This document shows positions 1-13,239 of a stretch of DNA of 64,000 nucleotides, one piece after another (the stretch's first letter is position 1; every line of letters begins with the position of its first letter). The DNA comes from Chloroflexota bacterium (GTDB taxonomy: Bacteria > Chloroflexota > Anaerolineae > Anaerolineales > UBA11858): positions 1,976 through 65,975 of the forward strand of contig JBDRGC010000023.1 of NCBI GenBank assembly GCA_043818215.1. The letters run 5' to 3'. A program made the position numbers and the translations under genes. The notes beneath the pieces are model-generated. The model saw only the letters and a program-made list of their open reading frames with translations. It ran no database searches and was not told the DNA's origin.

Positions 1-1587
1 GGCGCGGTACTGCTGCCCGGTCTCGATGGCTTCGACATTGATATTGGTTTGCTTGTCCACGTAGAGAGTCAGAGTCTCGCCAGCCTCGTCCATCAAGTCG
101 AGTTCGTAGCTGTAAGTGAACTCATCTACGCGCGTCACCAGACCTGCGACCTGTACGAGCAGCCCGGGGATGGTCGCGTCGGTGACAGCCTCGGCGATGC
201 TCACCGGTGTGGGCGGCCAACCGTCCTCGCCTGCGGGGGTGATGATCTCTACATCTTGCGGCGTATTGGAGATGAACTCGACCGCGCCGCGATACATCTC
301 GATAGTGCCGAAGACCCGCACGCGCGCCCCCAATGCCACGTTCACGATTCCCTCCCCATTGGGAATCCACACCTGGATGCCGCCAGATTCATCGGCCAGA
401 TATATTTTGGTGTGGCCTGCTCCGGCAAAGTACCCGCCGGTGTACATGGTCGCTATGCCTTCGATGCTCAGTTTCGGGCCGATGATAGTACGCGCAGTGC
501 CGATGGGGATAGTCCCACCTTCGATGGCCGTGCGCACCGGGCCGCCGAAAGCGGGCGCGGCCCAATCCTCGGCCTGAACGGAGTAATTGGCGGCCAGAGC
601 GGTGAGATACGTCCACGGGGTGCTGACTGTAATTTCAGTGGTGACCGTTTCCCCGGCGGCCAGCGAACCCAGTGACCAGAGAGCCACCTGATGCGTCTCG
701 CCGATATGCCCCATCCCCCAATAGGCGTCCTGGCCGCTGATTTCTACGTTGCTGTCGGTGACGATAATTTCCAAATCCAGCATGATAGGGAACTGGACCA
801 CCACGCCGCTGAGAGCCTGCCCGGTTTCGTTGGTGACCGAGAGCAGGTAGTCGAACTGGCTGCCCGGCGAGACGGTTTGCGGCGCTTCCGCGGAGAGAAT
901 CAGTTTTGCGCCCGCGTCGGGGGTGGCGAGGCTGCCGGTGTTCTGCGGGTTGGGTGCCGAGTTGAGGGCGAAGTCCGCGGCATTGTCGCCGCTATCGGCC
1001 CAGTTGCCCGCCTCGCCGCCGGGAGCGCGCTCTAACGCGATGCCGTTTTCCATTGCAAGCGCGGGCGAGCCTTCGGCGAAGTCAACCGTGCCGCCGCCCC
1101 ACGAGATGCTGTCCACAACACTGCCATCGGTCAGGCGCAGTTGCAGGCTGCCCTTTGGCCCGACCAGCGGCTGCTCGAAGAGAGCGTCGGGAGAGATGCC
1201 CAGGTCTTGCCCGGCGCGGCCCAGCAGATAGTGTCCCTGGGGCGGGATCAGGGCGTGCTCGCTCCAGCGGTAGACCAGGGTTTCGTCCTGCCCATCGGCC
1301 AGTTTGTACCATATCGACCAGCCTTTGATATCGAAGGGGGTCTGGCTGCCGATGTTGCAAAGTTCGATGAATTCAAAATTATTGTTGCCATCGACACCGG
1401 TCAATACCTCGCTGATTAGTACCGCCGGTTCCGTTGGGGCTGCGAGGACGGGTTCTGCCGCCGGCTCCGCGCTTGGCTCAACTGGGGGTGCTGCTGTGGG
1501 CGCGGGGGACTCAGTTGCTCCACCCCCGCAGGCGGCGAGAATCAAGGCGATGAGGGCTAATATTATAAAGATGTGTCTTTTTTGCAT
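1..1587 (-). CDS. Secreted lipoprotein with lamin-tail (LTD) domain, DUF11/CARDB-like segment and OB-fold; resembles the N-terminal part of ExeM/NucH-type extracellular nucleases (3' end lies outside the window)
   Basis: Absent from the ORF track because it runs off the window. Hand translation from the ATG (complement of 1585-1587) gives MQKRHIFIILALIALILAACGGG (lipobox LAAC). It continues ISEVLTGVDGNNNFEFIELCNIGSQTPFDIKGWSIWY...ERAPGGEAGNWADSGDNAADF (LTD signature), and later IGTARTI...GARVRVFGTIEMYRGAVEFIS (OB-like). The frame stayed open in the stretch I translated (about nt 241-1587), and the last 240 nt were not hand-checked. The plus-strand ORFs at 49-1612 are short overlapping shadow ORFs. 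Confidence 0.8.
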   Translation of the reverse strand, partial: MQKRHIFIILALIALILAACGGGATESPAPTAAPPVEPSAEPAAEPVLAAPTEPAVLISEVLTGVDGNNNFEFIELCNIGSQTPFDIKGWSIWYKLADGQDETLVYRWSEHALIPPQGHYLLGRAGQDLGISPDALFEQPLVGPKGSLQLRLTDGSVVDSISWGGGTVDFAEGSPALAMENGIALERAPGGEAGNWADSGDNAADFALNSAPNPQNTGSLATPDAGAKLILSAEAPQTVSPGSQFDYLLSVTNETGQALSGVVVQFPIMLDLEIIVTDSNVEISGQDAYWGMGHIGETHQVALWSLGSLAAGETVTTEITVSTPWTYLTALAANYSVQAEDWAAPAFGGPVRTAIEGGTIPIGTARTIIGPKLSIEGIATMYTGGYFAGAGHTKIYLADESGGIQVWIPNGEGIVNVALGARVRVFGTIEMYRGAVEFISNTPQDVEIITPAGEDGWPPTPVSIAEAVTDATIPGLLVQVAGLVTRVDEFTYSYELDLMDEAGETLTLYVDKQTNINVEAIETGQQYRA

Positions 1588-1627
1588 TGGGGTGTACTCC
1601 TGGTTTTTATAGATAGGATTTACGCAA

Positions 1628-1760
1628 GTGCAGAGCAAGCCCCCCCAGCCCCCCAATTCTGGGGGGAGCAGAAGGGTTCCCCCCAAGGTTGGGGGGTTAG
1701 GGGGGCGACTGCGTCCTATTAGCTTATTTGACGGTGGTCGGCGGTCGGCGGTCGGCGGTC
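1628..1760. repeat. G/C-run tetraloop-type hairpins (ccccccaATTCtgggggg, ccccccaaGGttgggggg) followed by (GGTCGGC)x4
   Basis: Read directly. It lies between the methyltransferase stop (1805) and the lipoprotein start (1587). Confidence 0.7.
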
Positions 1761-1804
1761 AATTATCCTTTTTTGCGGGTGTTCATGGTTTTATGTTTTA
1801 CGGC

Positions 1805-2764
1805 TCAATGCCAATGAGAGTCTTGTGATGGCTTATACACCGGTTTGTCAGATCTAATTTCCAATTCGCCCGACATGGCCTTTTTTACTCTCTGTACGGC
1901 TAATTTGTAATATGGCTCCATAATTTCAGATCCCGCTGCTCTTCGTTTATTGATTACGGCTGCAATGGCGGATGTGCCAATACCCATAAAAGGGTCGAAT
2001 ACAATATCGTCCTCGTTTGTCATAGACCACACCAGGCGTTGTACAAGAGCTACTGGAAACTGGCAGGGATGTTCCGTCTTTTCGACATGATTCGCCTTTA
2101 CGTTAGGTATATCCCAAACATCCGATGGATTCTTCCCCTTTGGATTGCCAGAAAGTTTACCCTTGTTAGGCCCTTTGAAATGCCTTTTACCGGGATACTT
2201 TTGAGGTACTCGAACAGGGTCGAGGTTGAAGATATACTCATCAGACTTTGTGAACCAGTTGATAGTTTCGTATCGTCCAGAAAAGCGATTTGCACAGTGT
2301 AATCCGTGCCCAAAATGCCAAACAATCCTGTTTCTAAGCTTTAGCCCCAATTCTTTGAAGTAGCCGTAGAGAAGGATATCAAGTGGAATTATTTCGCCAT
2401 TATCCACATAATTGCCTACTTGCCAACAAATGCTTCCTTCGGGCTTAAGTATGCGGACACATTGTTCAATGACATCAAGTTGCTGTGCCTTGTATACATC
2501 GATATCTGAAATGTCTTCATATTCTTTGCCAATGTTGTAGGGAGGGGATGTAACCACCAATTGAACACTTTCCTTGGGAATTGATTGCATGAAATCCAAG
2601 CAATCGCCATGATACAACGTAACTTGATTTTCGATAGAAAATGTGGATGAGATCACAATGTCCGGCTGACTCGACAAACCTTTCTGTTGAAAACTTTCCC
2701 TGTATTTGTGTTCAGGTATATATGCGTCCAGGCTTTTAAAGAGTGGTAAATCTCTTGTGGTCAC
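1805..2764 (-). CDS. Beta-class N4-cytosine/N6-adenine DNA methyltransferase (N6_N4_Mtase family), apparently orphan
   Basis: 319-aa ORF. Motif IV (SPPYNIGKEY) precedes motif I (FDPFMGIGTSAIAA), which is the beta permutation. SPPY favours m4C. A sampled line has about 43 % G+C. No nuclease-like ORF is adjacent. Confidence 0.85.
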   Translation of the reverse strand: MTTRDLPLFKSLDAYIPEHKYRESFQQKGLSSQPDIVISSTFSIENQVTLYHGDCLDFMQSIPKESVQLVVTSPPYNIGKEYEDISDIDVYKAQQLDVIEQCVRILKPEGSICWQVGNYVDNGEIIPLDILLYGYFKELGLKLRNRIVWHFGHGLHCANRFSGRYETINWFTKSDEYIFNLDPVRVPQKYPGKRHFKGPNKGKLSGNPKGKNPSDVWDIPNVKANHVEKTEHPCQFPVALVQRLVWSMTNEDDIVFDPFMGIGTSAIAAVINKRRAAGSEIMEPYYKLAVQRVKKAMSGELEIRSDKPVYKPSQDSHWH

Positions 2765-2950
2765 GGTATTCTCCAGTAGCTCTGTTCAATTATCGCCAAG
2801 TTATTTCTTCGATTTGCCGGCAGCTTCCGTCCGCGGGATTATTATATCGCCGGGCTGCTGGTTTCGACAAGTTCCTCGATTATTTCGAACACCCAGGGTT
2901 GAAGGCTGGGATCGCGCTCAACAAAATCGACCAGAGCCTGCGCAGAGCTT

Positions 2951-3118
2951 GTCGAAGCTTCGGCTGAACCAGTCCACACTTCGACAAACTCTGTGCAAGC
3001 TCCGGTGGACTTTGTGCATTTTGTTGCTGCTGAAACTTTCGTGAAGCATCCCGTGCGTAGCTCTGCGTAGCGTCCCCTTGGGGGATACCCGCAGGGTGCG
3101 AAGGGGGAAGTCGCCGGA
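2951..3118 (+). repeat. Dispersed element of about 150-170 nt, copy A (core tcggctgaaccagtccacacttcgacaaRctctgtgcaagctccggtggact ... agcatcccgtgcgtagc ... acccgcagggtgcgaaggggga)
   Basis: Near-identical to 10709-10850 in the same orientation. Copy A carries an extra 25-nt internal insert. It contains the stem agtccac/gtggact. Confidence 0.8.
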
Positions 3119-3187
3119 TGCCAAGACGAGACAGACTCAAAAAAAATTTAGAACTGAACAGCTCTACTACTTCTCCTTTATCGAAAA

Positions 3188-3544
3188 CTACACAGCCAGT
3201 GAACGAACTCTAATCTTGTTTACTTCTAACACCACAAATGCCCCCGGCAACCGTTGAGTTTCATATTCCAGCAAATCGCGTAAGTGTGGGATTTTAAGGG
3301 CACGGTCAACTACATCAAACCGCAGCAGAATTACACCTCGCGCAGGTCGCTGAAGCCTGTAAACCAATTCCCCAAAGTCTTTGTCTTCAGTGATCAGCAG
3401 ACGGTTTTCGGAGTAGGCACATGCAAGAATTTCGTCATCAGGCGCGCCATTCAGCGATTCGGCGGCGTACAATATATCATAGCCATCGGAGCGCAAGGCC
3501 TCGACCATTGCCTCATCACAACACTCGTCTGCCAGGAATTTCAT
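3188..3544 (-). CDS. DUF5615 (Mut7-C/PIN-like) putative toxin
   Basis: 118 aa: MKFLADECCD...LLITEDKDFGELV. Its start overlaps the stop of the upstream DUF433 gene, which is the classic DUF433/DUF5615 pairing. Confidence 0.7.
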   Translation of the reverse strand: MKFLADECCDEAMVEALRSDGYDILYAAESLNGAPDDEILACAYSENRLLITEDKDFGELVYRLQRPARGVILLRFDVVDRALKIPHLRDLLEYETQRLPGAFVVLEVNKIRVRSLAV

Positions 3545-3777
3545 AAGCGTTGTCCGCCCGCAAAAATAATCTCTTCCTGGGCCAGATGGTCAGCAGCAAA
3601 CGCGGCGGCGGCATATACATCATCCGGTGTAAGGCGCGGATGATCGTCCAAAATTTCCCCAACCATCATCCCTCCAGCCAACTTGCGCAGAAGGTGCTCT
3701 ACAGTAATTCGCGTACCTGTGATCACAGGCTTGCCAAACATGATGGCGGGATTGATCTCAATGCGATCATGAATCAT
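3541..3777 (-). CDS. DUF433 antitoxin-like protein
   Basis: MIHDRIEINPAIMFGKPVITGTRITVEHLL. I chose the internal ATG at 3777 because AAGGAG lies 6 nt upstream. The ORF track begins at 3813. Confidence 0.7.
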   Translation of the reverse strand: MIHDRIEINPAIMFGKPVITGTRITVEHLLRKLAGGMMVGEILDDHPRLTPDDVYAAAAFAADHLAQEEIIFAGGQRL

Positions 3778-3937
3778 AGGTGACTCCTTCGTTTTATTCT
3801 CGAGTTGTATCAATTCTCAAGCCATTTTATCACGATGCGACCAGAGCGGTCACTCTATCTACCCTACTCCATATACGGGTATGGAAAACGAAACTGGTTT
3901 AATGGTATCATCTCCATATTGTAGGGTAAAAACCATT

Positions 3938-4128
3938 GGGGTTTGACAATGGCACATTTCCAGCAACACTACAACGAATTTGGAAAGGAGCGAATTTTTC
4001 CGTCGCTCGTGGTGATATAAGCCAATTTTGCTATAAACTCGGTAGAAACGGTGTGCCCCGATTCGTTTTTTTCTAAATTCGCTGTAGTGTTGCGCCTAAT
4101 CTGCCATTGTCAAGGTAGGCGGGGTTTC
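3938..4128. mobile_element. MITE-like element of about 190 bp with terminal inverted repeats of about 44 bp
   Basis: The left arm ggggtttgacaatggcacatttccagcaacactacaacgaattt pairs with the right arm aaattcgctgtagtgttgcgcctaatctgccattgtcaagg. The motif TGACAATGGCA recurs at 46110 and 46284. Confidence 0.5.
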
Positions 4129-4264
4129 AATTCACCGTGCGAGCGAGATATAGAAATCTCGGCTACAGACCATCACTCTCGAAGAGGATACGTATTTTTT
4201 TTACAAACCCAAACAGCTATTATCATTAGTGCGCGTGATATGAGTAAAAGAGAACGGAAAACCT

Positions 4265-4519
4265 ATGGACGCAAACACAAATAAATTGAGTAGTATTTCG
4301 AAGGCAGATACGCTTGAGAAGATGGGGGAATTTTGGGACACGCACGACTTTACGGATTATGACACTGGGGCCCCCGATGTCGAGTTCAACGTTATTTGTG
4401 CTGTACCAGTAGAATTGGACCTCTTGTATTCAATCGAAAAGCAGGCACGTTTACGGGGTGTAAGGGTTGAAACATTGGTTAATCTTTGGTTGCATCAGAA
4501 GCTGGTTGAGCAAACCTGA
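4265..4519 (+). CDS. CopG/RHH-type antitoxin-like protein, solitary
   Basis: 84 aa with EFWDTHDFTDYDTGAPDVEF ... RGVRVETLVNLWLHQKL, a pattern typical of small antitoxins. No toxin ORF lies downstream. Confidence 0.55.
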   Translation: MDANTNKLSSISKADTLEKMGEFWDTHDFTDYDTGAPDVEFNVICAVPVELDLLYSIEKQARLRGVRVETLVNLWLHQKLVEQT

Positions 4520-4667
4520 GTTTCAATAGATGGACAGTATTTGAGCAATAACTCGACTCTACCGCCCTTTTGGCACGTCAACCGCCGCCGGTAAAATAGC
4601 ATACAGGTATACAAGGTAGCTGATTGACTGACAAAACTTTCTTGCTTCCTAATTAGGATCGGAAATT

Positions 4668-4755
4668 GGACACGGATTTACCCTTCGGGCACGATGTCAC
4701 GGATTCAACGGATTTTCATGATTTTACATCCATGAAATCCGTTGAATCCGTGTCC
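4668..4755. repeat. Palindromic 'gtacacggat' element, copy 1
   Basis: ggacacggatttacccttcgggcacgatgtcacggattcaacggat...atccgttgaatccgtgtcc. Related copies are at 23651-23718 and 43130-43227. It is nested inside another inverted repeat (ctgacaaaac / gatttgtcag). Confidence 0.8.
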
Positions 4756-4777
4756 GAAAAAGATTTGTCAGCCAACC

Positions 4778-4843
4778 AGACAAGGTAGACAAAGTAGACA
4801 CGGTTTGTCTACCCTGTCTACCCTGTATACTCTGTCTACTCTG
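4778..4843. repeat. Hairpin of 7-8-nt units (GGTAGAC / GTCTACC)
   Basis: agacaaggtagacaaagtagacacggtttgtctaccctgtctaccctgtatactctgtctactctg. The TAG stop of the 4836 gene lies inside the last unit. Confidence 0.8.
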
Positions 4844-5987
4844 CTCCCCAAACCTTCTCCCACTCATCCCTCAACAGATTCCCTAAAACCTGATTGACAC
4901 CCTGCGCGGGCAGCACGTCCCCGTCCGGCTCGACGTACAGCCAGGCGCGGCCGGCGCCATCGGGAGGCGCGTCTTCCTCGGTTTCCAGGGCGATGGGGTT
5001 GCGGGTGGAATAGGGAACGGGCAGGTCCCAGACGAGCGATAAACCCAACTCGGCAGCTAATTCCCCTGCGGTTTGCACGGTCTCACTGACTTCAGTTGTA
5101 GTTCCGCTGAGGGAGAGAGCGTTGGCCCCCATGTCAGCCAATCGTTCCAACAATTCGGGGATTCGGGCCGCGTTTTCAGGGGTCACGGTCAGGTGAACGG
5201 TGGTATGCAAATCTTCGAGCAGCACAGTTCTCAAAGCTTGCCAGGCCTGCTCATTTTCGGGTTGGAGAACGAGCATCAGGTGGTCGAGGCCGGTTTGCAG
5301 CAGCGTGTTCAGGTAATCGGCGTCGGCCAGCCGCAAGCCATCAGTGAGCAGCCCGGTGACCTGCCCGAGGGCATCGGCGTGGGCGATCAGTTCGGGGAGA
5401 TCGTCCCGCAGAGTGGGTTCGCCGCCCGTGAAGCTGATATGGGGGATACCCGCGTCCCAGGCCTTGTCGAGGATGGTCTGCCACTCGCCGGTGGTGAGTT
5501 CGCGGTCGACGCGCCTGGTGGGGGCGGCCTCGGGGTCGGCATCCTCCGGCAAGCGGTAGGTCAGGGCACAGTCGAGACGGTAGGGGGCCGCGATCTCTCC
5601 CGAATAGGGGGCCTGCCTCTCGAAGCCCAGGTAAGTGACCGGGTCCAAATCGGGAATGTCGATCAGGGTTATAAGCCTTTCTTTCAAATCCCGGAAATCT
5701 TGCAGGGCTTGTTTTGCGGAGACTCGATACCGCTGGGCAAATTCACTGGCGATCTGATCGTCAGGCGTATCCTGCACCAGGTGGTAGGCATACTCAGCGG
5801 CGGTTTGATTAAGGTGCAGCACGGTAGAGGCGTTGACGATCAACAAACCGTTGCCGTCCGGTTCGAGACGCAAGTGCAGGCGGTATGGATACTCGGCATC
5901 GGGCGGGGCCTGATAATGGTAAACGCCCACAGGCAAGGGTTCTTTCTGGGTGAAAATACGGCGGATGCTTTCTTGGATAGTTGTCAT
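4836..5987 (-). CDS. Pseudo-radical-SAM/SPASM paralogue (all cluster cysteines lost), with a PqqD/RRE-like N-terminal domain
   Basis: Collinear with the 8545-9984 protein (YRLHLRLEPDGNGLLIVNA..; FTGGEPTLRDDLPELIAHA; YVEPDGDVLPAQG..LGNLL). RCNNDCAHCYN is replaced by RLPEDADPEAA, and the SPASM Cys residues are absent; the whole protein has a single Cys. Start set at MTTIQ (ATG at 5987, preceded by AAAGGAA). Confidence 0.7.
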   Translation of the reverse strand: MTTIQESIRRIFTQKEPLPVGVYHYQAPPDAEYPYRLHLRLEPDGNGLLIVNASTVLHLNQTAAEYAYHLVQDTPDDQIASEFAQRYRVSAKQALQDFRDLKERLITLIDIPDLDPVTYLGFERQAPYSGEIAAPYRLDCALTYRLPEDADPEAAPTRRVDRELTTGEWQTILDKAWDAGIPHISFTGGEPTLRDDLPELIAHADALGQVTGLLTDGLRLADADYLNTLLQTGLDHLMLVLQPENEQAWQALRTVLLEDLHTTVHLTVTPENAARIPELLERLADMGANALSLSGTTTEVSETVQTAGELAAELGLSLVWDLPVPYSTRNPIALETEEDAPPDGAGRAWLYVEPDGDVLPAQGVNQVLGNLLRDEWEKVWGAE

Positions 5988-6221
5988 AGCGGATTCCTTT
6001 CTTACTAATCGGTAATAAGCTGTCAGTGGTCGGTTTGTAGTCGCGCACGAGAGTGCGCCCACCACCGCACCCACTCGCTAAATAGCTACACGAGAGATCA
6101 CTAATTATTGCTCGTTTTTCTGTTGACTACACACCAAATCCGCGCTCGTCCGCGTCCATTTCGGAATGATGTCGGGTAGCGAAAGTCTTTATCAGCATAT
6201 CTGAGCAAAAACGCCTTGGGT

Positions 6222-6551
6222 TCAAGGGGATGAAGCAATTAATGAACGGAGTGCGTCATTCACGGATTCCGAATCAGGGAAATACTTTCGCACGTCTGGC
6301 TCTAACACTATTGTGCCATCTTCTAATCGGAACTGTCGAATGAGTGTTGTTCCATCCTCGTTATGGACTGTGACCGTATGACCTTCGTGATACGCTTTGT
6401 AGTGTTTGCTACGAACCCCGCCACTGAAATCATATTCGGGGCGCATATCATTGAAAATCATCTTTCCTTCGTCAAAGCTGACTTTGTGCTTTCTGAGATT
6501 ATCTTCGGCTTTTTCTTCGTCCCATTCAAATTCGAGTTCCATTATGCTCAT
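6222..6551 (-). CDS. Fusion of the first ~30 aa of a BrnT (DUF497) toxin to a BrnA-like antitoxin; a toxin-antitoxin remnant
   Basis: ELEFEWDEEKAEDNLRKHKVSFDEG is the BrnT N-terminal signature. It is followed directly by RPEYDFSGG...LEPDVRKYFPDSESVNDALRSLI, an antitoxin-type sequence. Confidence 0.5.
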   Translation of the reverse strand: MSIMELEFEWDEEKAEDNLRKHKVSFDEGKMIFNDMRPEYDFSGGVRSKHYKAYHEGHTVTVHNEDGTTLIRQFRLEDGTIVLEPDVRKYFPDSESVNDALRSLIASSP

Positions 6552-6602
6552 TCCTGATTAAGAGTTTACCGCACTTTTGCGCTTTTTTCAACAAGCGGCC
6601 TT

Positions 6603-6672
6603 CCGCCACTCGCCACTCGCCACTCGCTACCCGCCACCCACCACCCGCCACCCGCTATTCGCCATTCGCTAT
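6603..6672. repeat. Heptamer array (GCCACTC/GCCACCC family, complement of GAGTGGC)
   Basis: ccgccactcgccactcgccactcgctacccgccacccaccacccgccacccgctattcgccattcgct. It encodes the last residues (IANGE) and the TAG stop of the acyltransferase. Confidence 0.85.
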
Positions 6673-7557
6673 TATATCGGGCCACGCCGGATAATACATC
6701 AACCACTGCTCCGGGGCCTGACGAATAAAGCCCTCGATGACTTTCAGCACGGCCTCACCGTTGATACGGATTTCTTCCGCCGGGTCGTCGTGCCGTTGCA
6801 TGGGGATGAGATCGGAGAGCAGTAATTCGTAGCGCCCATCTGTGCGTAAGTGGGCCGCACCTACAACCACCGGTACATCAGCTTCGAGCGCCATGCGGAT
6901 ATGTCCCGCGGGCAGGGGGCTGGGATGCCCGAAAAATCTCAGGGTGTGCGCCTTTCTGCGGATGGGACGGTCAACCGCGGTGGCGACCAGTCCGCCGTTG
7001 CGCATGAGTTCGATGGCTTTTTGGTGGGTCGTGTCGCTTACGGGGGTGATGTCCAGCCCGGTAGTGGCCCGGATATCGTTTTGAATCTTATATCCGCCGG
7101 TGGGCTGCCCGTAAGTCAATACCTGCCCGTGCAAACCCCGGTACGCCAGGGATAGCAAAACCATATCGAAGTTGCTCAAATGGGGCGCAGCCAGGAAAAC
7201 GCCCTGTTTTTCAGCCTGGCTTATTTGGATCAATCTCTGCGCAGCGGGGTTATCCACCACCAGCTTTAGCAGCCCATCCCGATTTTGGAGATTATGATAG
7301 AGATCGACGAAGCAGCGCCCTGCGTGTTGGAACACAGCCCGGACAGCATTGTCCAGTTCTTCGGGGGATGACTTTTCCCCGCGCACGACCCACTGGTTGG
7401 CACGCACCGCCTGTACCATCGGTGAGGACTGATTCCCCGCCAGACGACCAGCGACCAGGCCTGAAAGTTGGTAGCCCAGACTGGTGGGCATCATCCGCCC
7501 CAAAAAGAGCCCCAGCCCCACTCCAAAGCGGCTGTTGGTAAATTTTTGTAGGTTCAT
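6655..7557 (-). CDS. Lysophospholipid/lipid-A-type acyltransferase (HtrB/PatA-like LPLAT)
   Basis: 300 aa. HX4D motif is HLSNFD. The overall layout matches the Lip_A_acyltrans family, as recalled from memory. Confidence 0.75.
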   Translation of the reverse strand: MNLQKFTNSRFGVGLGLFLGRMMPTSLGYQLSGLVAGRLAGNQSSPMVQAVRANQWVVRGEKSSPEELDNAVRAVFQHAGRCFVDLYHNLQNRDGLLKLVVDNPAAQRLIQISQAEKQGVFLAAPHLSNFDMVLLSLAYRGLHGQVLTYGQPTGGYKIQNDIRATTGLDITPVSDTTHQKAIELMRNGGLVATAVDRPIRRKAHTLRFFGHPSPLPAGHIRMALEADVPVVVGAAHLRTDGRYELLLSDLIPMQRHDDPAEEIRINGEAVLKVIEGFIRQAPEQWLMYYPAWPDIIANGE

Positions 7558-7720: not shown

Positions 7721-8311
7721 TCAATCCTTGAATAACCTGTAACTCTCTATCAATACGGGCATCCCGCGCAGGATGGTCATTGTGATTGCCAGCCAGGAGA
7801 TGATCAAGGCGATGATATGAATCCAGCCCGCCCAAGCATGATTCAAAATGCGAAATCCCAAAGAGATGGTGACAAATGCAAAAGCAAATCCTTTAACGGT
7901 CCCGTAAAAATCACGCATGAACCGGGATGAGACCAGGGCGCGGCTGATGGGGTGTTTGACTTGATCGAAGGCGGCCTCGCCAGCGCTCATCCCCACGGCC
8001 CGGACAGCATCTGTCAGCGTGCCGCGGGTGATCACGATGATGGGAATGACGATGGGTATCAGCCCCAAATGAGCATACACTACCCATAAAATGATCTCTA
8101 ATGCCCGGTCTACGGCTATATCCAGGGTGCTGCCCAACAGACTGACTTCGCCAAATTTTCTTGCAATGAAGCCGTCAAGCGTATCCATCAAGATAATAAT
8201 CACGATGAAGGGCACACAAAAAAAGATCGCCGTAGCGTTACCGGTGTACAGCAATGCCACGTAAACAAACAACAGCGGAAAACGAAACAAGGTGATTGCG
8301 TTAGCCATCAT
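7721..8311 (-). CDS. CDP-alcohol phosphatidyltransferase (PgsA/PI-synthase-like)
   Basis: DTLDGFIARKFGEVSLLGSTLDIAVD fits D-x2-DG-x2-AR-x8-G-x3-D-x3-D. The protein is polytopic and hydrophobic. Confidence 0.85.
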   Translation of the reverse strand: MMANAITLFRFPLLFVYVALLYTGNATAIFFCVPFIVIIILMDTLDGFIARKFGEVSLLGSTLDIAVDRALEIILWVVYAHLGLIPIVIPIIVITRGTLTDAVRAVGMSAGEAAFDQVKHPISRALVSSRFMRDFYGTVKGFAFAFVTISLGFRILNHAWAGWIHIIALIISWLAITMTILRGMPVLIESYRLFKD

Positions 8312-8318
8312 TAGTGAC

Positions 8319-8564
8319 TTGGTAGATTGGTAGATTGGTAGATTGGTATTTTGGTAGTTGGTAAACAGGTAGATTGGTAATTGGTGATTGGTTACTTGGT
8401 GTTCAGGCAGTGGTCAGCGGTCAGCAGTCGGCGGTCAGCAGTCAACGGTCAGCGGTCAGCGGTCGGCGGTCAGCAGTCAACGGTCGGCGGTCAGCGGTCG
8501 GCGGTCAGCGGTCAGGCGGTCAACCGACCCCTAACTCCTAACCCCTAACCCCTAACTCCCAACC
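8319..8564. repeat. Three concatenated 7-8-nt arrays: GGTAGATT-type, then GGTCAGC/GGTCGGC/AGTCAAC-type, then CCCTAAC-type
   Basis: Read directly. It fills the whole spacer between the rSAM stop and the phosphatidyltransferase start. The rSAM C-terminus (GLGVRG) and its TAG stop are encoded by the CCCTAAC units. Confidence 0.9.
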
Positions 8565-9984
8565 CATGAGCCTCCATCGCCAACGGGCACCCGCCCCCAC
8601 ACTCAGGCAGCATGTCGCACTCGTGGCACTCGTCGGGGACGTATTTCCGCTCCCGCAAGCTGACGGCCAACTCGTGGTTCCAGATCGAGTCCCAGGGATC
8701 TTGCAAAATATTGCCAAGCTGCTGGTAGTACGACTGGCAGGGTATCACGCCGCCGTCCGGTTCCACGCACATATTGTATAGCGCGGCAGTGCAGCCTTTG
8801 ACGCCCAGTTCGAGTTGCATGGGGTCGAATTTGCAGTATTGGGTGGGCGTGTACCAGATCAGGCGTTGGTTGTGAGCAGCGGTTTTTTCGCGGGCCAGTT
8901 CGAGCAGCGCAGGCAATTCGCTCTCACGCAAGCCAGTGCCTACCGTCAGTCCGCGGCCAGAGTAGATCAAGGCGTTCAATCCGAGGGTGGGGACGCCCTC
9001 CTCGGCCAGAAAGTCGAGTGTCTCTCCCAGGGTAGAATAATTATCTTGCAGCATGGTCGTGTTGGTCATCACGTAGAGCGGGCTGTCGAGCACATTGCGC
9101 AGCCCGGCGATAGTTTGCTTCCAGGCGCCAGATTTGCCCACCATTTGATCGTGGATTTGGGCATCGTGGGATTCGACCGTGATTTGAACATGATCCAGCC
9201 CGGCCTCGACCAGAGCATCCAAAAAGCGGCCGTCGCTCAACCTGCGGGCGTTGGTGTTGAGTCCCGTGATCTGTCCGTTGGCCTCGGCGTGAGCCACCAA
9301 CTCGGGGAGATCGTCCCGCAGAGTTGGTTCGCCGCCGGTGAAGATGATGTGCGGGATGCTCAAGTCCCAGGCCCGGTCGATGACGCGCTTCCAACGGGCG
9401 GTGGGCATTTCGGGGTAATCCCGCGGGCGGGCGTTGTAGCAGTGAGCGCAATCGTTGTTGCAGCGGTAGGTTAAGGCCAGATCCATGCGGTAGGGAGCCG
9501 TGGGCCGGGCGCTGAAGGGGGCTGCAATTTCCAGGTCATCCAGATTGCAGGCCGGACAGCCGTCCGGGCGGATGATCTCATCGAAGTCGGCCAGAAATTG
9601 GGTGTAATCGCTTTGGGCCTGGGTTTTCGAGACCCGGTAGCCGCGGGTGACAGCGCGCACCGCCTGGGGTTCGGGAGTCTCTTCCAATATCAGGTAAGCC
9701 ATCATCGCGGCGGTGGGATTGAAGTGCATCACCCGGTTGGCGTTGACGATCAGCGTCCCGTGACCGTCAGGGTCGATGCGCAGGTGGATGCGCGAGCGGT
9801 AGCTGGCGGTCTGACGCGTGTAGTGGTGCAGGCCGGGGGGAACGAGTGGCGAGTGGCGAGTAGCGGGTGGCGGGTGGCGAGTAGCGTCCCTTACAGGGAT
9901 GATAAGTGGCGAATGGCGACCGCCGACCGCTGAGTGGAGATTAGAGATTAGTGATTGGATACCGGCAAGGGGTGACTTTGACAT
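8545..9984 (-). CDS. Radical SAM/SPASM-domain enzyme with a PqqD/RRE-like N-terminal domain
   Basis: CNNDCAHCYN is the CxxxCxxC motif. FTGGEPTLR is present. The C-terminal Cys-rich SPASM region reads CVEPDGGVIPC...CHECDMLPECGGGCP. The first ~50 codons are repeat-derived, so the true start is uncertain. Confidence 0.85.
   Translation of the reverse strand: MSKSPLAGIQSLISNLHSAVGGRHSPLIIPVRDATRHPPPATRHSPLVPPGLHHYTRQTASYRSRIHLRIDPDGHGTLIVNANRVMHFNPTAAMMAYLILEETPEPQAVRAVTRGYRVSKTQAQSDYTQFLADFDEIIRPDGCPACNLDDLEIAAPFSARPTAPYRMDLALTYRCNNDCAHCYNARPRDYPEMPTARWKRVIDRAWDLSIPHIIFTGGEPTLRDDLPELVAHAEANGQITGLNTNARRLSDGRFLDALVEAGLDHVQITVESHDAQIHDQMVGKSGAWKQTIAGLRNVLDSPLYVMTNTTMLQDNYSTLGETLDFLAEEGVPTLGLNALIYSGRGLTVGTGLRESELPALLELAREKTAAHNQRLIWYTPTQYCKFDPMQLELGVKGCTAALYNMCVEPDGGVIPCQSYYQQLGNILQDPWDSIWNHELAVSLRERKYVPDECHECDMLPECGGGCPLAMEAHGLGVRG
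9844..9958. repeat. Composite heptamer arrays (GAGTGGC, GGTCGGC complement, AATCTCT complement) inside the annotated 5' end of the rSAM ORF
   Basis: gagtggcgagtggcgagtagcgggtggcgggtggcgagtagc ... cgaccgccgaccgctga ... gagattagagattagtgattgg. It translates as GGRHSPL..ATRHPPPATRHSPL. Confidence 0.85.
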
Positions 9985-10032: not shown

Positions 10033-10245
10033 TCACTTGATTGGTCCAAACTCACGGCGGCTGATTCCCAGGTCGCGAAGGATGCGGCGTAGGGTACCGG
10101 TCTTGATGTCTCTGGAACCCCAGTTTGGGATAGTTGTGTAGTGATCCAATACAGGATTCCACCAGATGCAGTGTGAGCCAGCACCGGGACGAATGTACTC
10201 GCAACCCAGTTTGCGGAGACGTTTAGCTGCTTCGCGGTATTTCAT
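10033..10245 (-). CDS. hicA: HicA-family mRNA interferase toxin
   Basis: 70 aa: KYREAAKRLRKLGCEYIRPGAGSHCIWWN. It has a 4-nt overlap with the upstream hicB. Confidence 0.85.
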   Translation of the reverse strand: MKYREAAKRLRKLGCEYIRPGAGSHCIWWNPVLDHYTTIPNWGSRDIKTGTLRRILRDLGISRREFGPIK

Positions 10246-10508
10246 GCGAACGCCATCCGCAGCGTGAAGGGAAATTGAAGATTGATCTGCTCCAGATCGG
10301 GATGCAGGGGAGAACCGTTGTCCTGTCGGGCCTGGATCATTGCCCGGACGTTACCGGGGATAGCGCGCATGGCTTCGTCTAGCGTTTCGCCCCAGGCGTG
10401 ACAACCCTGTAGCCAGGGACAGCTTACCTGGTAAACCTGATCCTCTTCCAAATAATCCACGCTAATGGGGATGACGATTTCGTCAATCACAATTGTATTG
10501 TCCATCAC
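10242..10508 (-). CDS. hicB: HicB-family antitoxin (UPF0150 fold)
   Basis: 88 aa: YQVSCPWLQGCHAWGETLDEAMRAI. It is coupled to hicA. Confidence 0.75.
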   Translation of the reverse strand: MMDNTIVIDEIVIPISVDYLEEDQVYQVSCPWLQGCHAWGETLDEAMRAIPGNVRAMIQARQDNGSPLHPDLEQINLQFPFTLRMAFA

Positions 10509-10933: not shown

Positions 10934-12610
10934 CTACCTACCTCCCCCCGCACAGGCGCAGGCGCACCCGGCGCAGGCGCAGGCGCAACTGGAACCACCG
11001 CTGCTGCTCCGGTACCCGCCGCTGCTGGACGATTTGGGGACCGGGTTGGTCTTATTGGTGATGCTGCTGGTGAAATCGGTGACACTGCCGACCACATCGC
11101 TGCTGAATCCCTGAATGCCGGTGACCATCGAGGCGGCAAACTCTCCGCCGGGCAGACTGGGCATAGAAGTCGCCGAGCGGCCTCCACCAATGCTGGCGGG
11201 GACTACCTTGGGGGCAGTCTTCACCGACCCTGACCGTGACCACCCGGGGTCGTAGCGTCCCCACCACATCGGGACGAAAACCGGGCCGGTGCGGAAGACA
11301 TTTTGCGTGCGGTCGTCGAAGTCTTTGTCGAGCATTGTCCACCCCATGTTTTCATCGAATTGCTGGCTTTTGACCTCGGGGGTATCGGCGGCTTCGACCT
11401 GCTGCCAGGCGCGCTCCATGATTTTGCGATAGTAAGCCACGCTCTCTTTGTGGCTGAAGCCTTTCATCTTTTTGCTTACGCCCTTGATCAGTTTGATCAT
11501 CACCTCGCGCAGTTGTTTGCGCCGCGAGTCTTTTCGTTTGGCAGCGAAGGCCTGGATGAATTCTTCTTCGTAGGGGCGCAGATTCTCCGGCAGGGGGTCG
11601 GCAATTTCTAGTGTAAGTGGGTCACGCTTGATCACGGTGGCGGCTTCTTTTTTTAGCACGGCAAACAAAATCATAGTCAGAATTTTGTCCATGGGCCGTT
11701 CCATCAAAATGGCTGCTTCTATGGCTGTCAGGCCGCGTTTGATGCCGTGCCCCTCGATGCGAATCTTGGGGGGCAGGTATTTCATCTTGCGTTTACGGGT
11801 GCTGACGACACTACCCCATGTAACGAAGGCGATTAGGCCGATAATGCCTCCACAGCACATCAAGCCCATTAGATCTTCTTCGTCGATACCGAGGCGTTCG
11901 AGAAAGCCGGGTGAGTAGATGGCGCTCTCTGGCACATAGGATTTGGGGAACGAAGCCCCAAATTTATACTGAGTGTGCCCATTGGCGTCAGGGTTGTGCC
12001 AGATATAAGCAATGCGCCCTTCGCTATCGAGTTTGGTGTCTGGTTCGGAGGGCCAGTCTCCCGAGGGTGATTCATGCCAGCGGGGTTCGTCGGGCTGCAC
12101 ACCGGGTGGCAGGTGGAAAACTACGGTCATATCTGTGCTGCCATAGACATACGCGGAACCAAACCAACTGGTACCGAAAACCGCACTGGCGTATTTGCTG
12201 TCGGTGGTGTCGGTGTAGAGCACGTTAGAGACGGTGCTCACGTAGACATGGACTGTCCCCGTTTGCCCGGCTGGGATGGCGCGGCCCCCCAAAACGACAG
12301 CCACGCCGCTTCCCGATCCTTCGTAGTCGGAACTAGAGACCGAAACCGAATGCCCGTTTACGTCAGCCTGAATGCTGAACAAATCATAGGAATAATTTGG
12401 CAGGCCCAGATCGACATATTCGATGGAGTGCCCGCTGGGATCATTGTAGAATTCCATCACATAATCCAGGGACATACTGCCATCTTCATTCCAGTAGACG
12501 TGAATAACTTCTTTATCCAGCCGGAAGTAATAATCCTGTGCCAGAGCGCTGCCGGGAATGGACAGTAGAATGGCTATCAAAACCAGAGTAGAGAATATTT
12601 TGTATTTCAT
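10934..12610 (-). CDS. DUF2207-like membrane protein with a C-terminal (Cys-Ala)n tail
   Basis: Signal peptide MKYKIFSTLVLIAILLSIPGSALA. An ectodomain of about 235 aa. Transmembrane segment LMCCGGIIGLIAFVTWGSVV. Basic juxtamembrane stretch. The tail is SSSSGGYRSSSGGSSCACACAGCACACAGGGR. Confidence 0.6.
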   Translation of the reverse strand: MKYKIFSTLVLIAILLSIPGSALAQDYYFRLDKEVIHVYWNEDGSMSLDYVMEFYNDPSGHSIEYVDLGLPNYSYDLFSIQADVNGHSVSVSSSDYEGSGSGVAVVLGGRAIPAGQTGTVHVYVSTVSNVLYTDTTDSKYASAVFGTSWFGSAYVYGSTDMTVVFHLPPGVQPDEPRWHESPSGDWPSEPDTKLDSEGRIAYIWHNPDANGHTQYKFGASFPKSYVPESAIYSPGFLERLGIDEEDLMGLMCCGGIIGLIAFVTWGSVVSTRKRKMKYLPPKIRIEGHGIKRGLTAIEAAILMERPMDKILTMILFAVLKKEAATVIKRDPLTLEIADPLPENLRPYEEEFIQAFAAKRKDSRRKQLREVMIKLIKGVSKKMKGFSHKESVAYYRKIMERAWQQVEAADTPEVKSQQFDENMGWTMLDKDFDDRTQNVFRTGPVFVPMWWGRYDPGWSRSGSVKTAPKVVPASIGGGRSATSMPSLPGGEFAASMVTGIQGFSSDVVGSVTDFTSSITNKTNPVPKSSSSGGYRSSSGGSSCACACAGCACACAGGGR

Positions 12611-12867: not shown

Positions 12868-13239
12868 TTACCATTTCGGTTCTTCCGTCAATTGATAGGT
12901 CGTGTTGCAGTAAGGGCAGCTGACTACCGGGGCGCCGGCCACCATTTTGATATTGTCCAGGGTGAGTGCGCCCCCGCAGGATTGACATTTCATTGTGTCC
13001 AGGCTGACATCGCCGGGCAAGTCGATTTTCAGGGTCACGTCGCCCCCCTCCCCCCCCGCGGCGGTTGGCTGGCGGCGGCTGGCGAACCAGATCACGCCGA
13101 AGCCGATCCCCACGCTGATGACACCAACCACTAGCCACCCAAGCTGCCCATCAGGGCTGAATGTAGCCCAGATGAACAGCACGCCAAAGAATATCAGAAT
13201 AGCTGCAAAAATATAAGCGATGATTTTTCCTGCTGACAT
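12868..13239 (-). CDS. Small membrane protein with a C-terminal zinc ribbon
   Basis: Two hydrophobic helices, then CQSCGG...CPYCN. Confidence 0.5.
   Translation of the reverse strand: MSAGKIIAYIFAAILIFFGVLFIWATFSPDGQLGWLVVGVISVGIGFGVIWFASRRQPTAAGGEGGDVTLKIDLPGDVSLDTMKCQSCGGALTLDNIKMVAGAPVVSCPYCNTTYQLTEEPKW

Follow-up and report, generated by a model that had tools for sequence, protein, structure and literature searches.

The closest described systems to the one reported here are the maturases SkfB, SuiB, CteB and PqqE (with PqqD), which are radical S-adenosylmethionine (SAM) proteins with a SPASM or twitch domain and a recognition element (RRE) for ribosomally synthesized and post-translationally modified peptides (RiPPs). 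Radical SAM chemistry requires the ligands of the enzyme's clusters. Stand-alone RRE or PqqD-type RiPP chaperones, by contrast, are non-catalytic: they bind the substrate peptide and present it to the enzyme. We analyzed a 64,000-nucleotide stretch of the genome of a Chloroflexota bacterium of the order Anaerolineales (contig JBDRGC010000023.1, positions 1,976 to 65,975; "the window" below), and in particular a gene that we call DEAD (4836-5987, minus strand) and its paralog ACT (8545-9984, minus strand). DEAD has the same predicted fold and domain order as SkfB, SuiB, CteB and PqqE with PqqD, but it has no cluster motif and no auxiliary cysteines, and its CxxCx5Cx3C block is deleted, so it cannot be a functional member of that group. 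We lean towards the interpretation that it is a non-catalytic, peptide-binding partner in the maturation of the C-terminal tail of a membrane protein, m558, that is encoded in the same window. Its proposed mode of action is that of the stand-alone RRE chaperones, from which it differs because its RRE-like domain is attached to a full dead enzyme body, because ACT has an RRE of its own, and because those chaperones bind short precursor peptides whereas m558, the presumed substrate here, is a membrane protein of full size.

A protein of this kind is not unheard of, because a "pseudo-SAM/SPASM protein" family exists by name in NCBIfam (TIGR04347, model pseudo_SAM_Halo) and, as far as the family name goes, resembles DEAD in concept. 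The two families are different: that of DEAD is much larger, and for it both a clear active partner and a candidate for the substrate can be named. In the titles and abstract openings covered by our literature search, we found no description of the DEAD family, of the Cys-Ala tail of m558, or of the function or partners of TIGR04347. A first-pass annotation, made from the DNA letters without database searches, had stated that pseudo-radical-SAM partners are described for some peptide-maturation systems; the titles and abstract openings did not confirm this, and the only trace of such partners was the name of TIGR04347.

DEAD and ACT match with 39% amino acid sequence identity over 401 columns (BLASTP E = 8e-82), which is far beyond chance and bears out the first-pass description of DEAD as a radical SAM paralog beside an active enzyme. 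ACT is encoded 2.5 kb upstream of DEAD, and they are the only two homologs in the window's assembly, which is 80% complete and consists of 529 contigs. The sequence FTGGEPTLRDDLPELIAHA of DEAD aligns with ...ELVAHA of ACT, the segment FTGGEPTLRDDLPEL(I/V)AHA being common to both. The two proteins had been proposed to be collinear through the SPASM region, and this holds up to ACT residue 438, whereas the last ~41 residues of ACT have no counterpart in DEAD. The CxxxCxxC loop has been replaced, as first noted, with YRLPEDADPEAAPTRR in DEAD occupying the place of YRCNNDCAHCYNARPR in ACT, and the CxxCx5Cx3C block of the ACT SPASM domain is deleted, not substituted. DEAD has one Cys in 383 residues, and the joint alignment described below agrees with this count that the auxiliary-cluster cysteines are gone. 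Its open reading frame (ORF) is intact, running on the minus strand from an ATG at 5987 to a stop at 4836, and it has its own Shine-Dalgarno-like sequence (AAAGGA, 6000-5995), again as originally described. A longer ORF from a GTG at 6074 is possible, but we favor the ATG because several DEAD orthologs have an in-frame stop three codons upstream of the aligned Met.

To examine the lost ligands we used, besides the window's own pair, a fetched set of 37 further dead-type genes and 35 active ones, and we built a joint alignment from 36 of the dead sequences and 35 of the active ones. The CxxxCxxC motif is absent from all 38 dead-type copies (the window's and those of the 37 loci), each of which has between 0 and 4 cysteines, and it is present in 36 of 36 active copies, which have 12-17 cysteines each. 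In the joint alignment, each of the 11 invariant cysteines of ACT (C175, C179, C182, C384, C398, C406, C416, C453, C456, C462 and C466) is substituted or deleted in every one of the 36 dead sequences. The three CxxxCxxC positions are substituted in all 36, and all eight auxiliary cysteines of the SPASM domain are substituted or deleted in all 36; for example, C384 is always Ser and C406 always Tyr, and C453, C456, C462 and C466 are always deleted. DEAD should be unable to cleave SAM reductively, because none of the three [4Fe-4S] clusters can bind. It would therefore be a "pseudo-radical-SAM" descendant of an ACT-type maturase.

ACT has Pfam matches to Radical_SAM, SPASM and PqqD. In DEAD, there is a partial Radical_SAM match (PF04055; residues 156-242, profile positions 20-110 of 166, 41.4 bits against a cutoff of 29.5) and no Pfam match to SPASM (PF13186), and PqqD (PF05402) falls below its cutoff (E = 2.9e-4, 21.6 bits against 23.4), although a precomputed PF05402 call is present in some DEAD orthologs. 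By the criteria of the radical SAM superfamily, DEAD thus has a homologous partial TIM-barrel core with GGE but no cluster motif. NCBIfam has no model that matches DEAD or ACT at its cutoff. The best NCBIfam match of DEAD is PqqE (TIGR02109), but at 79 bits against a cutoff of 381 it is not a member; the second best, TIGR04347, was rejected as an assignment at 51.6 bits against 525. No curated family in Pfam or NCBIfam covers DEAD. In databases, members of its family carry the label "radical SAM protein", and source names and the atlas place the family in Anaerolineales/Chloroflexota. This label is wrong for the chemistry of DEAD, and counts of radical SAM genes from genome mining would therefore be off.

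An AlphaFold2 model of DEAD, made with 27 orthologs, has a pLDDT of 77 and a pTM of 0.78, and its only low-confidence parts are the linker between RRE and barrel (residues 123-133) and the former auxiliary-cluster loop (324-347). The RRE-like region in the model consists of four strands (21-26, 36-41, 47-51 and 55-59) followed by three helices (61-71, 76-87 and 91-110). By Foldseek, the best matches of the model in the Protein Data Bank are SkfB (6efn, E = 1.2e-12), PqqE (6c8v), SuiB (5v1t), DesII and CteB (5wgg), and the best sequence-profile match of DEAD is again PqqE (E = 3e-14).

We next consider whether DEAD is a duplicate that is turning into a pseudogene, an idea that has the loss of all catalytic ligands in its favor. 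We sampled 61 genomes (the window's assembly and 60 relatives) and found intact dead-type ORFs, with no internal stops, in 44 of them: the window's genome, 34 of 36 relatives from the same family, and 9 of the 24 relatives that belong to other families in the order. The 36 full-length dead copies are 381-402 residues long. Frequent frameshifts in relatives, which would have spoken for decay, were looked for and the ORFs were intact in 44 of 44 genomes. A dead copy in one genome (G017) at first seemed to be split, but its two pieces flank an NN assembly gap in the contig and so are not evidence of decay, and the apparent internal stops in G446, G473 and G523 are terminal stop codons of intact ORFs. 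The ratio of nonsynonymous to synonymous substitution rates (dN/dS, Nei-Gojobori method) that the first-pass annotation had proposed as a test also indicates selection: in the six closest genome pairs it is 0.038-0.137 for DEAD, with bootstrap upper bounds of at most 0.19, and 0.098-0.240 for ACT. Of 496 pairs, only 19 have a dS of less than 1.5 for each of the two genes, and in these the two copies share a median dN/dS of 0.23. Because the variable N-terminus of ACT somewhat inflates its dN, the safe wording is that DEAD is at least as constrained as ACT. Divergence has been faster in genus g182, where the dead copy is 38-39% identical to the window's and the active copy 57-59% (loci L093 and L094, in genomes G539 and G562); this could reflect either relaxed or adaptive evolution. 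Together with the conserved length and the monophyly of the dead copies over at least nine families (see below), these results refute the pseudogene explanation, and they support the earlier view that DEAD is a dead copy kept by purifying selection and not in decay.

What has been kept under this selection is the RRE-like domain, the barrel scaffold and the C-terminal hairpin. In the joint alignment, 63 columns are conserved and identical in both paralogs, 14 of them in the RRE region. The kept elements of the RRE-like domain are HLR, LxVNA, HLN and TAA, and those elsewhere are APYRxDxALTY, IPHxxFTGGEPT, GLDH and the YVEPDG...Q...GN hairpin. The barrel of DEAD has also been remodeled: three short stretches are deleted, and polar residues that are conserved in ACT on strands beta4-beta6 (Q267, T269, S272 and T307-T310) are replaced. 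There are gains as well, namely a near-invariant Cys140 on strand beta1, an invariant H265, and a replacement loop with conserved residues of its own (P156, R159, V160, E163 and L164). The retained GGE and the new Cys140 may leave room for residual ligand binding or for a new catalytic role. DEAD could accordingly be imagined as a neofunctionalized enzyme with a cluster-independent activity, for example one that binds SAM via GGE to modify the tail or a lipid by non-radical chemistry. Such an enzyme would account for the invariance of FTGGEPT in 27 of 27 aligned DEAD orthologs, for the gained residues and conserved loop, and for selection as strong as that on ACT. We nevertheless consider it improbable, since the other polar positions that line the SAM and substrate site on beta4-beta6 have been lost, GGE itself is lost in four more divergent members of the family (P0141, P0154, P0158 and P0164), and no non-radical enzyme family matched DEAD in Pfam, NCBIfam, structure or profile searches.

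A quick maximum likelihood (ML) tree groups the dead copies into one clade (19 rows, SH-aLRT support 97), and the family spans at least nine families of a single order; that the clade falls outside every active clade may be a long-branch effect. We scanned 251 genomes of the class with a profile of the dead family. Seven of them have dead-type genes (E = 1e-159 or better), namely the window's genome and six of the seven other genomes that were sampled from its order. Another 26 genomes, from other orders, have a single match with an E-value between 1e-103 and 1e-117. All 10 of the single matches that we fetched have the cluster motif, with 14-20 cysteines, and 6 of the 10 lie in a block of s123, m558 and ACT genes that has no dead copy. 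In several of these single-enzyme lineages (loci L072, L073 and L075-L079), ACT ends with an extra tail after GGGCPLY, with one more Cys and the form ...C(V/L)(E/D)S.STAV; this extra tail is absent where a dead partner exists, but it is also absent in family f65.

Motif-less relatives are also found more widely. A profile search of 1.84 billion representative proteins gave 181 matches at E = 1e-30 or better, and the motif is absent from 107 of the best 150 of these, many of which are fragments that may lack it by truncation. Full-length motif-less proteins of 369-404 residues occur down to ~245 bits, along with some longer motif-less relatives, and a more divergent type of 370-385 residues belongs to genus g182 of the same order. 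A word-index search with DEAD gave 7,725 proteins at E = 1e-20 or better among 8,000 candidates scored, a number that includes active-type relatives; the best 120 are all dead-type in length, and none of them has a SPASM call.

A second kind of RRE-bearing paralog without CxxxCxxC is present in four genomes of families f10 and f57 (loci L063, L080, L081 and L090, in G045, G294, G269 and G182, respectively). Like DEAD, it lies beside ACT and the tail protein. It differs from DEAD in forming a separate long-branch clade (SH-aLRT 100), in having lost GGE and kept CxxCx5Cx3C, in its length of 443-466 residues, and in its location between m558 and the active gene. On sequence grounds it appears to be an independently derived dead partner, and because it adjoins ACT in four genomes, a non-catalytic partner recurs in the module.

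Which gene products might DEAD work with? The features of the window that bear on this question are listed in Table 1.

Table 1. Features of the DEAD locus, in window coordinates (all on the minus strand).
Feature	Coordinates	Strand	Description
DEAD	4836..5987	-	Cys-poor 383-aa paralog of radical SAM maturase; RRE-like N-terminal domain; remodeled partial TIM barrel keeping FTGGEPT; C-terminal beta-hairpin region without cluster ligands
Shine-Dalgarno-like site	5995..6000	-	AAAGGA, 7 nt 5' of ATG 5987 (read from sequence)
BrnT-like ORF	6222..6551	-	Sub-threshold Pfam match; inserted between AT and DEAD
AT	6655..7557	-	Lipid A / PIM-type acyltransferase, between ACT and DEAD
PT	7721..8311	-	CDP-alcohol phosphatidyltransferase, between ACT and DEAD
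ACT	8545..9984	-	Active 479-aa RRE-radical SAM-SPASM paralog; C175xxxC179xxC182 and eight more invariant Cys
HicA/HicB	10033..10508	-	Toxin-antitoxin pair inserted between m558 and ACT
m558	10934..12610	-	558-aa membrane protein, C-terminus ...SSCACACAGCACACAGGGR; likely ACT substrate
m558 tail codons	10937..10987	-	(Cys-Ala)n-GGGR tail; 6 Cys in window, 7 in most orthologs
s123	12868..13239	-	123-aa membrane protein; C-terminal zinc-ribbon-like CxxC...CxxC and conserved ...EEPKW end

The likely substrate, the Cys-Ala-tailed membrane protein m558 upstream of ACT, had been overlooked in the first-pass annotation. It has no Pfam family and gives a weak, sub-threshold match to the TIGR04222 domain (E = 0.009). 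Its tail (CACACACAGCACACAGGGR, plus or minus one Cys-Ala) is near-invariant in fetched orthologs that are otherwise only 28-69% identical. In one relative (locus L041, genome G003) two paralogs of the tail protein lie in tandem at 1347-3035 and 3066-5459, with the same Cys-Ala tail, upstream of one active enzyme. The m558 gene is present in exactly the same 46 of the 61 genomes as any radical SAM gene of this type, and the other 15 genomes have none of these genes; since the relatives are not independent, this should be read as a phyletic pattern rather than a statistical test. Each of the 44 genomes with a dead-type gene also has an active-type match. The protein s123 has two predicted membrane helices, and its gene is always the first of the module.

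DEAD is part of a vertically inherited module of four genes: s123, m558, ACT and DEAD. The order s123-m558-ACT-PT-AT-DEAD is conserved in 26 loci and the window, all from the window's family (f1). In six loci of families f2, f8, f14, f15 and f16, ACT and DEAD are directly adjacent on one strand with gaps of ~16-80 nt, and in one further f14 locus the gap is ~1 kb. In two genomes of family f7 (G042 and G057) the dead gene comes directly after m558, and the active-type gene is on the other strand or, in G057, ~180 kb away, an arrangement in which DEAD is linked directly with the tail protein. HicA/HicB separates m558 from ACT in the window, whereas relatives have the two genes immediately side by side. 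Despite this insertion and that of the BrnT-like ORF, every gene of the module is intact in the window.

The conserved order in f1 raises the question of whether DEAD, PT and AT together serve a lipid or lipopeptide pathway. We found neither PT nor AT separating ACT from DEAD in genus g8, which is also in f1, or in the fetched loci of f2, f7, f8, f14, f15 and f16, where ACT and DEAD, or m558 and DEAD, are adjacent or ~1 kb apart. Since, among the genomes sampled, this placement is seen only in the window's family, PT and AT are a family-specific insertion and not part of the core of the module; linkage to the lipid genes is lineage-specific and linkage to m558 and ACT is general, and we regard a role in lipid metabolism as very improbable.

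Our preferred interpretation, that DEAD is a non-catalytic peptide-binding partner, is based on the strong selection, the kept RRE-like domain, the strict co-inheritance with ACT and m558, and the adjacency to m558 where the active gene has moved away. The first-pass annotation had suggested a scaffold or substrate-presenting role, which would be of this kind. In the mechanism we propose, the RRE-like domain and remodeled barrel of DEAD would bind m558, perhaps at the stretch that immediately precedes its tail, and DEAD would then hold, present or protect the bound region for ACT, which would modify the tail cysteines of m558. Because single-enzyme lineages exist, DEAD would modulate this reaction rather than enable it. 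If DEAD is indeed a partner subunit, it is a tractable example of a radical SAM pseudoenzyme, and it could explain how a maturase deals with a substrate that is a protein anchored in the membrane rather than a short peptide. DEAD and the (Cys-Ala)n tail protein mark an undescribed and widespread post-translational system in Anaerolineae-type Chloroflexota.

Alternatively, DEAD could be a stand-alone chaperone or regulator that binds the Cys-rich tail of m558 (or s123) via its RRE-like domain without any contact with ACT, perhaps keeping the cysteines reduced or unmetallated, or gating access to them. The f7 gene order fits this idea, as do G036 and G059, in which the dead gene is unlinked from the active gene, and the single-enzyme lineages, in which catalysis proceeds without DEAD. 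On the other hand, in most genomes DEAD is in the same operon-like block as ACT, to which it is directly adjacent in the six loci from other families, and among the 61 genomes it never occurs without an active-type homolog; we therefore think that independence from ACT is unlikely, although it is the strongest of the alternatives to a partnership.

Several observations weigh against a partnership of DEAD with ACT on the m558 tail. The existence of single active enzymes in other orders means that the chemistry does not generally require DEAD. The dead gene and the module are on different contigs in G036 and G059. Constraint on DEAD is not uniform, because the g182 dead copy diverged faster than the active one. 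The replacements of polar residues on beta4-beta6 are compatible with lost SAM and substrate chemistry, yet they also mean that the barrel pocket has changed, and a pure scaffold role does not explain the invariant GGE and near-invariant new C140. The ties of DEAD to ACT and m558 are those of genomic linkage and co-occurrence; co-folding of ACT (residues 50-479) with DEAD, run without controls, scored 0.00 in both runs, which is evidence neither for nor against binding. Finally, contigs from RNA libraries touch DEAD only at 4815-4922 (run X3), with a trace in the bin 5274-5560, although such contigs do not prove transcription and holes in their cover prove nothing.

A broader hypothesis, which we put forward tentatively and think will more probably fail than hold, is that the maturases of this clade work as pairs of a catalytic and a non-catalytic paralog on full-size membrane proteins, with DEAD as an obligate pseudoenzyme subunit that docks the tail protein by means of its RRE-like domain and remodeled barrel and passes it on to the active subunit, and that dead partners evolved more than once. 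Candidates for such repeated origins are the order-wide DEAD clade, the "second" copies in other families, and the motif-less relatives from metagenomes. If this is correct, no pseudoenzyme subunit of a radical SAM maturase of peptides or proteins will have been described before DEAD.

The module of two relatives is flanked on one side by a PhoU/phosphate-transport region and on the other by a SUF iron-sulfur assembly operon comprising Rieske, NifU-like, cysteine desulfurase and SufBD genes (L044, 13306-17884; L059, 10056-15252). Such surroundings suggest that the module is part of the core chromosome rather than a mobile gene cluster. In three loci from genomes of other families, a gene for a class I SAM methyltransferase (Methyltransf_11) adjoins the dead copy or ACT (L059, 9219-10046; L061, 3393-4199; L058, 5326-6048), and it may be an additional tailoring gene.

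The BrnT-like ORF of the window has no counterpart at its position in Pfam-annotated relatives. It is followed by a terminator-like hairpin (6227-6214), and between this hairpin and the start of DEAD we found no sigma-70-like site by a simple consensus match, an approach that is not very informative in this phylum. Between the genes of the block, the space is filled by short tandem repeat arrays and inverted repeats (4780-4841, 6526-6706 and 8374-8541), with 9-nt units at 4806-4841. Three groundwater metatranscriptome runs from one study contain 0.09, 0.00 and 0.02 of the sampled words, and the zero-mismatch RNA-library contigs include parts of PT, the 5' end of ACT, and m558. The array at ~8320-8430 has a very high summed depth of RNA contigs (~300 in run X1), probably because many organisms share the repeat.

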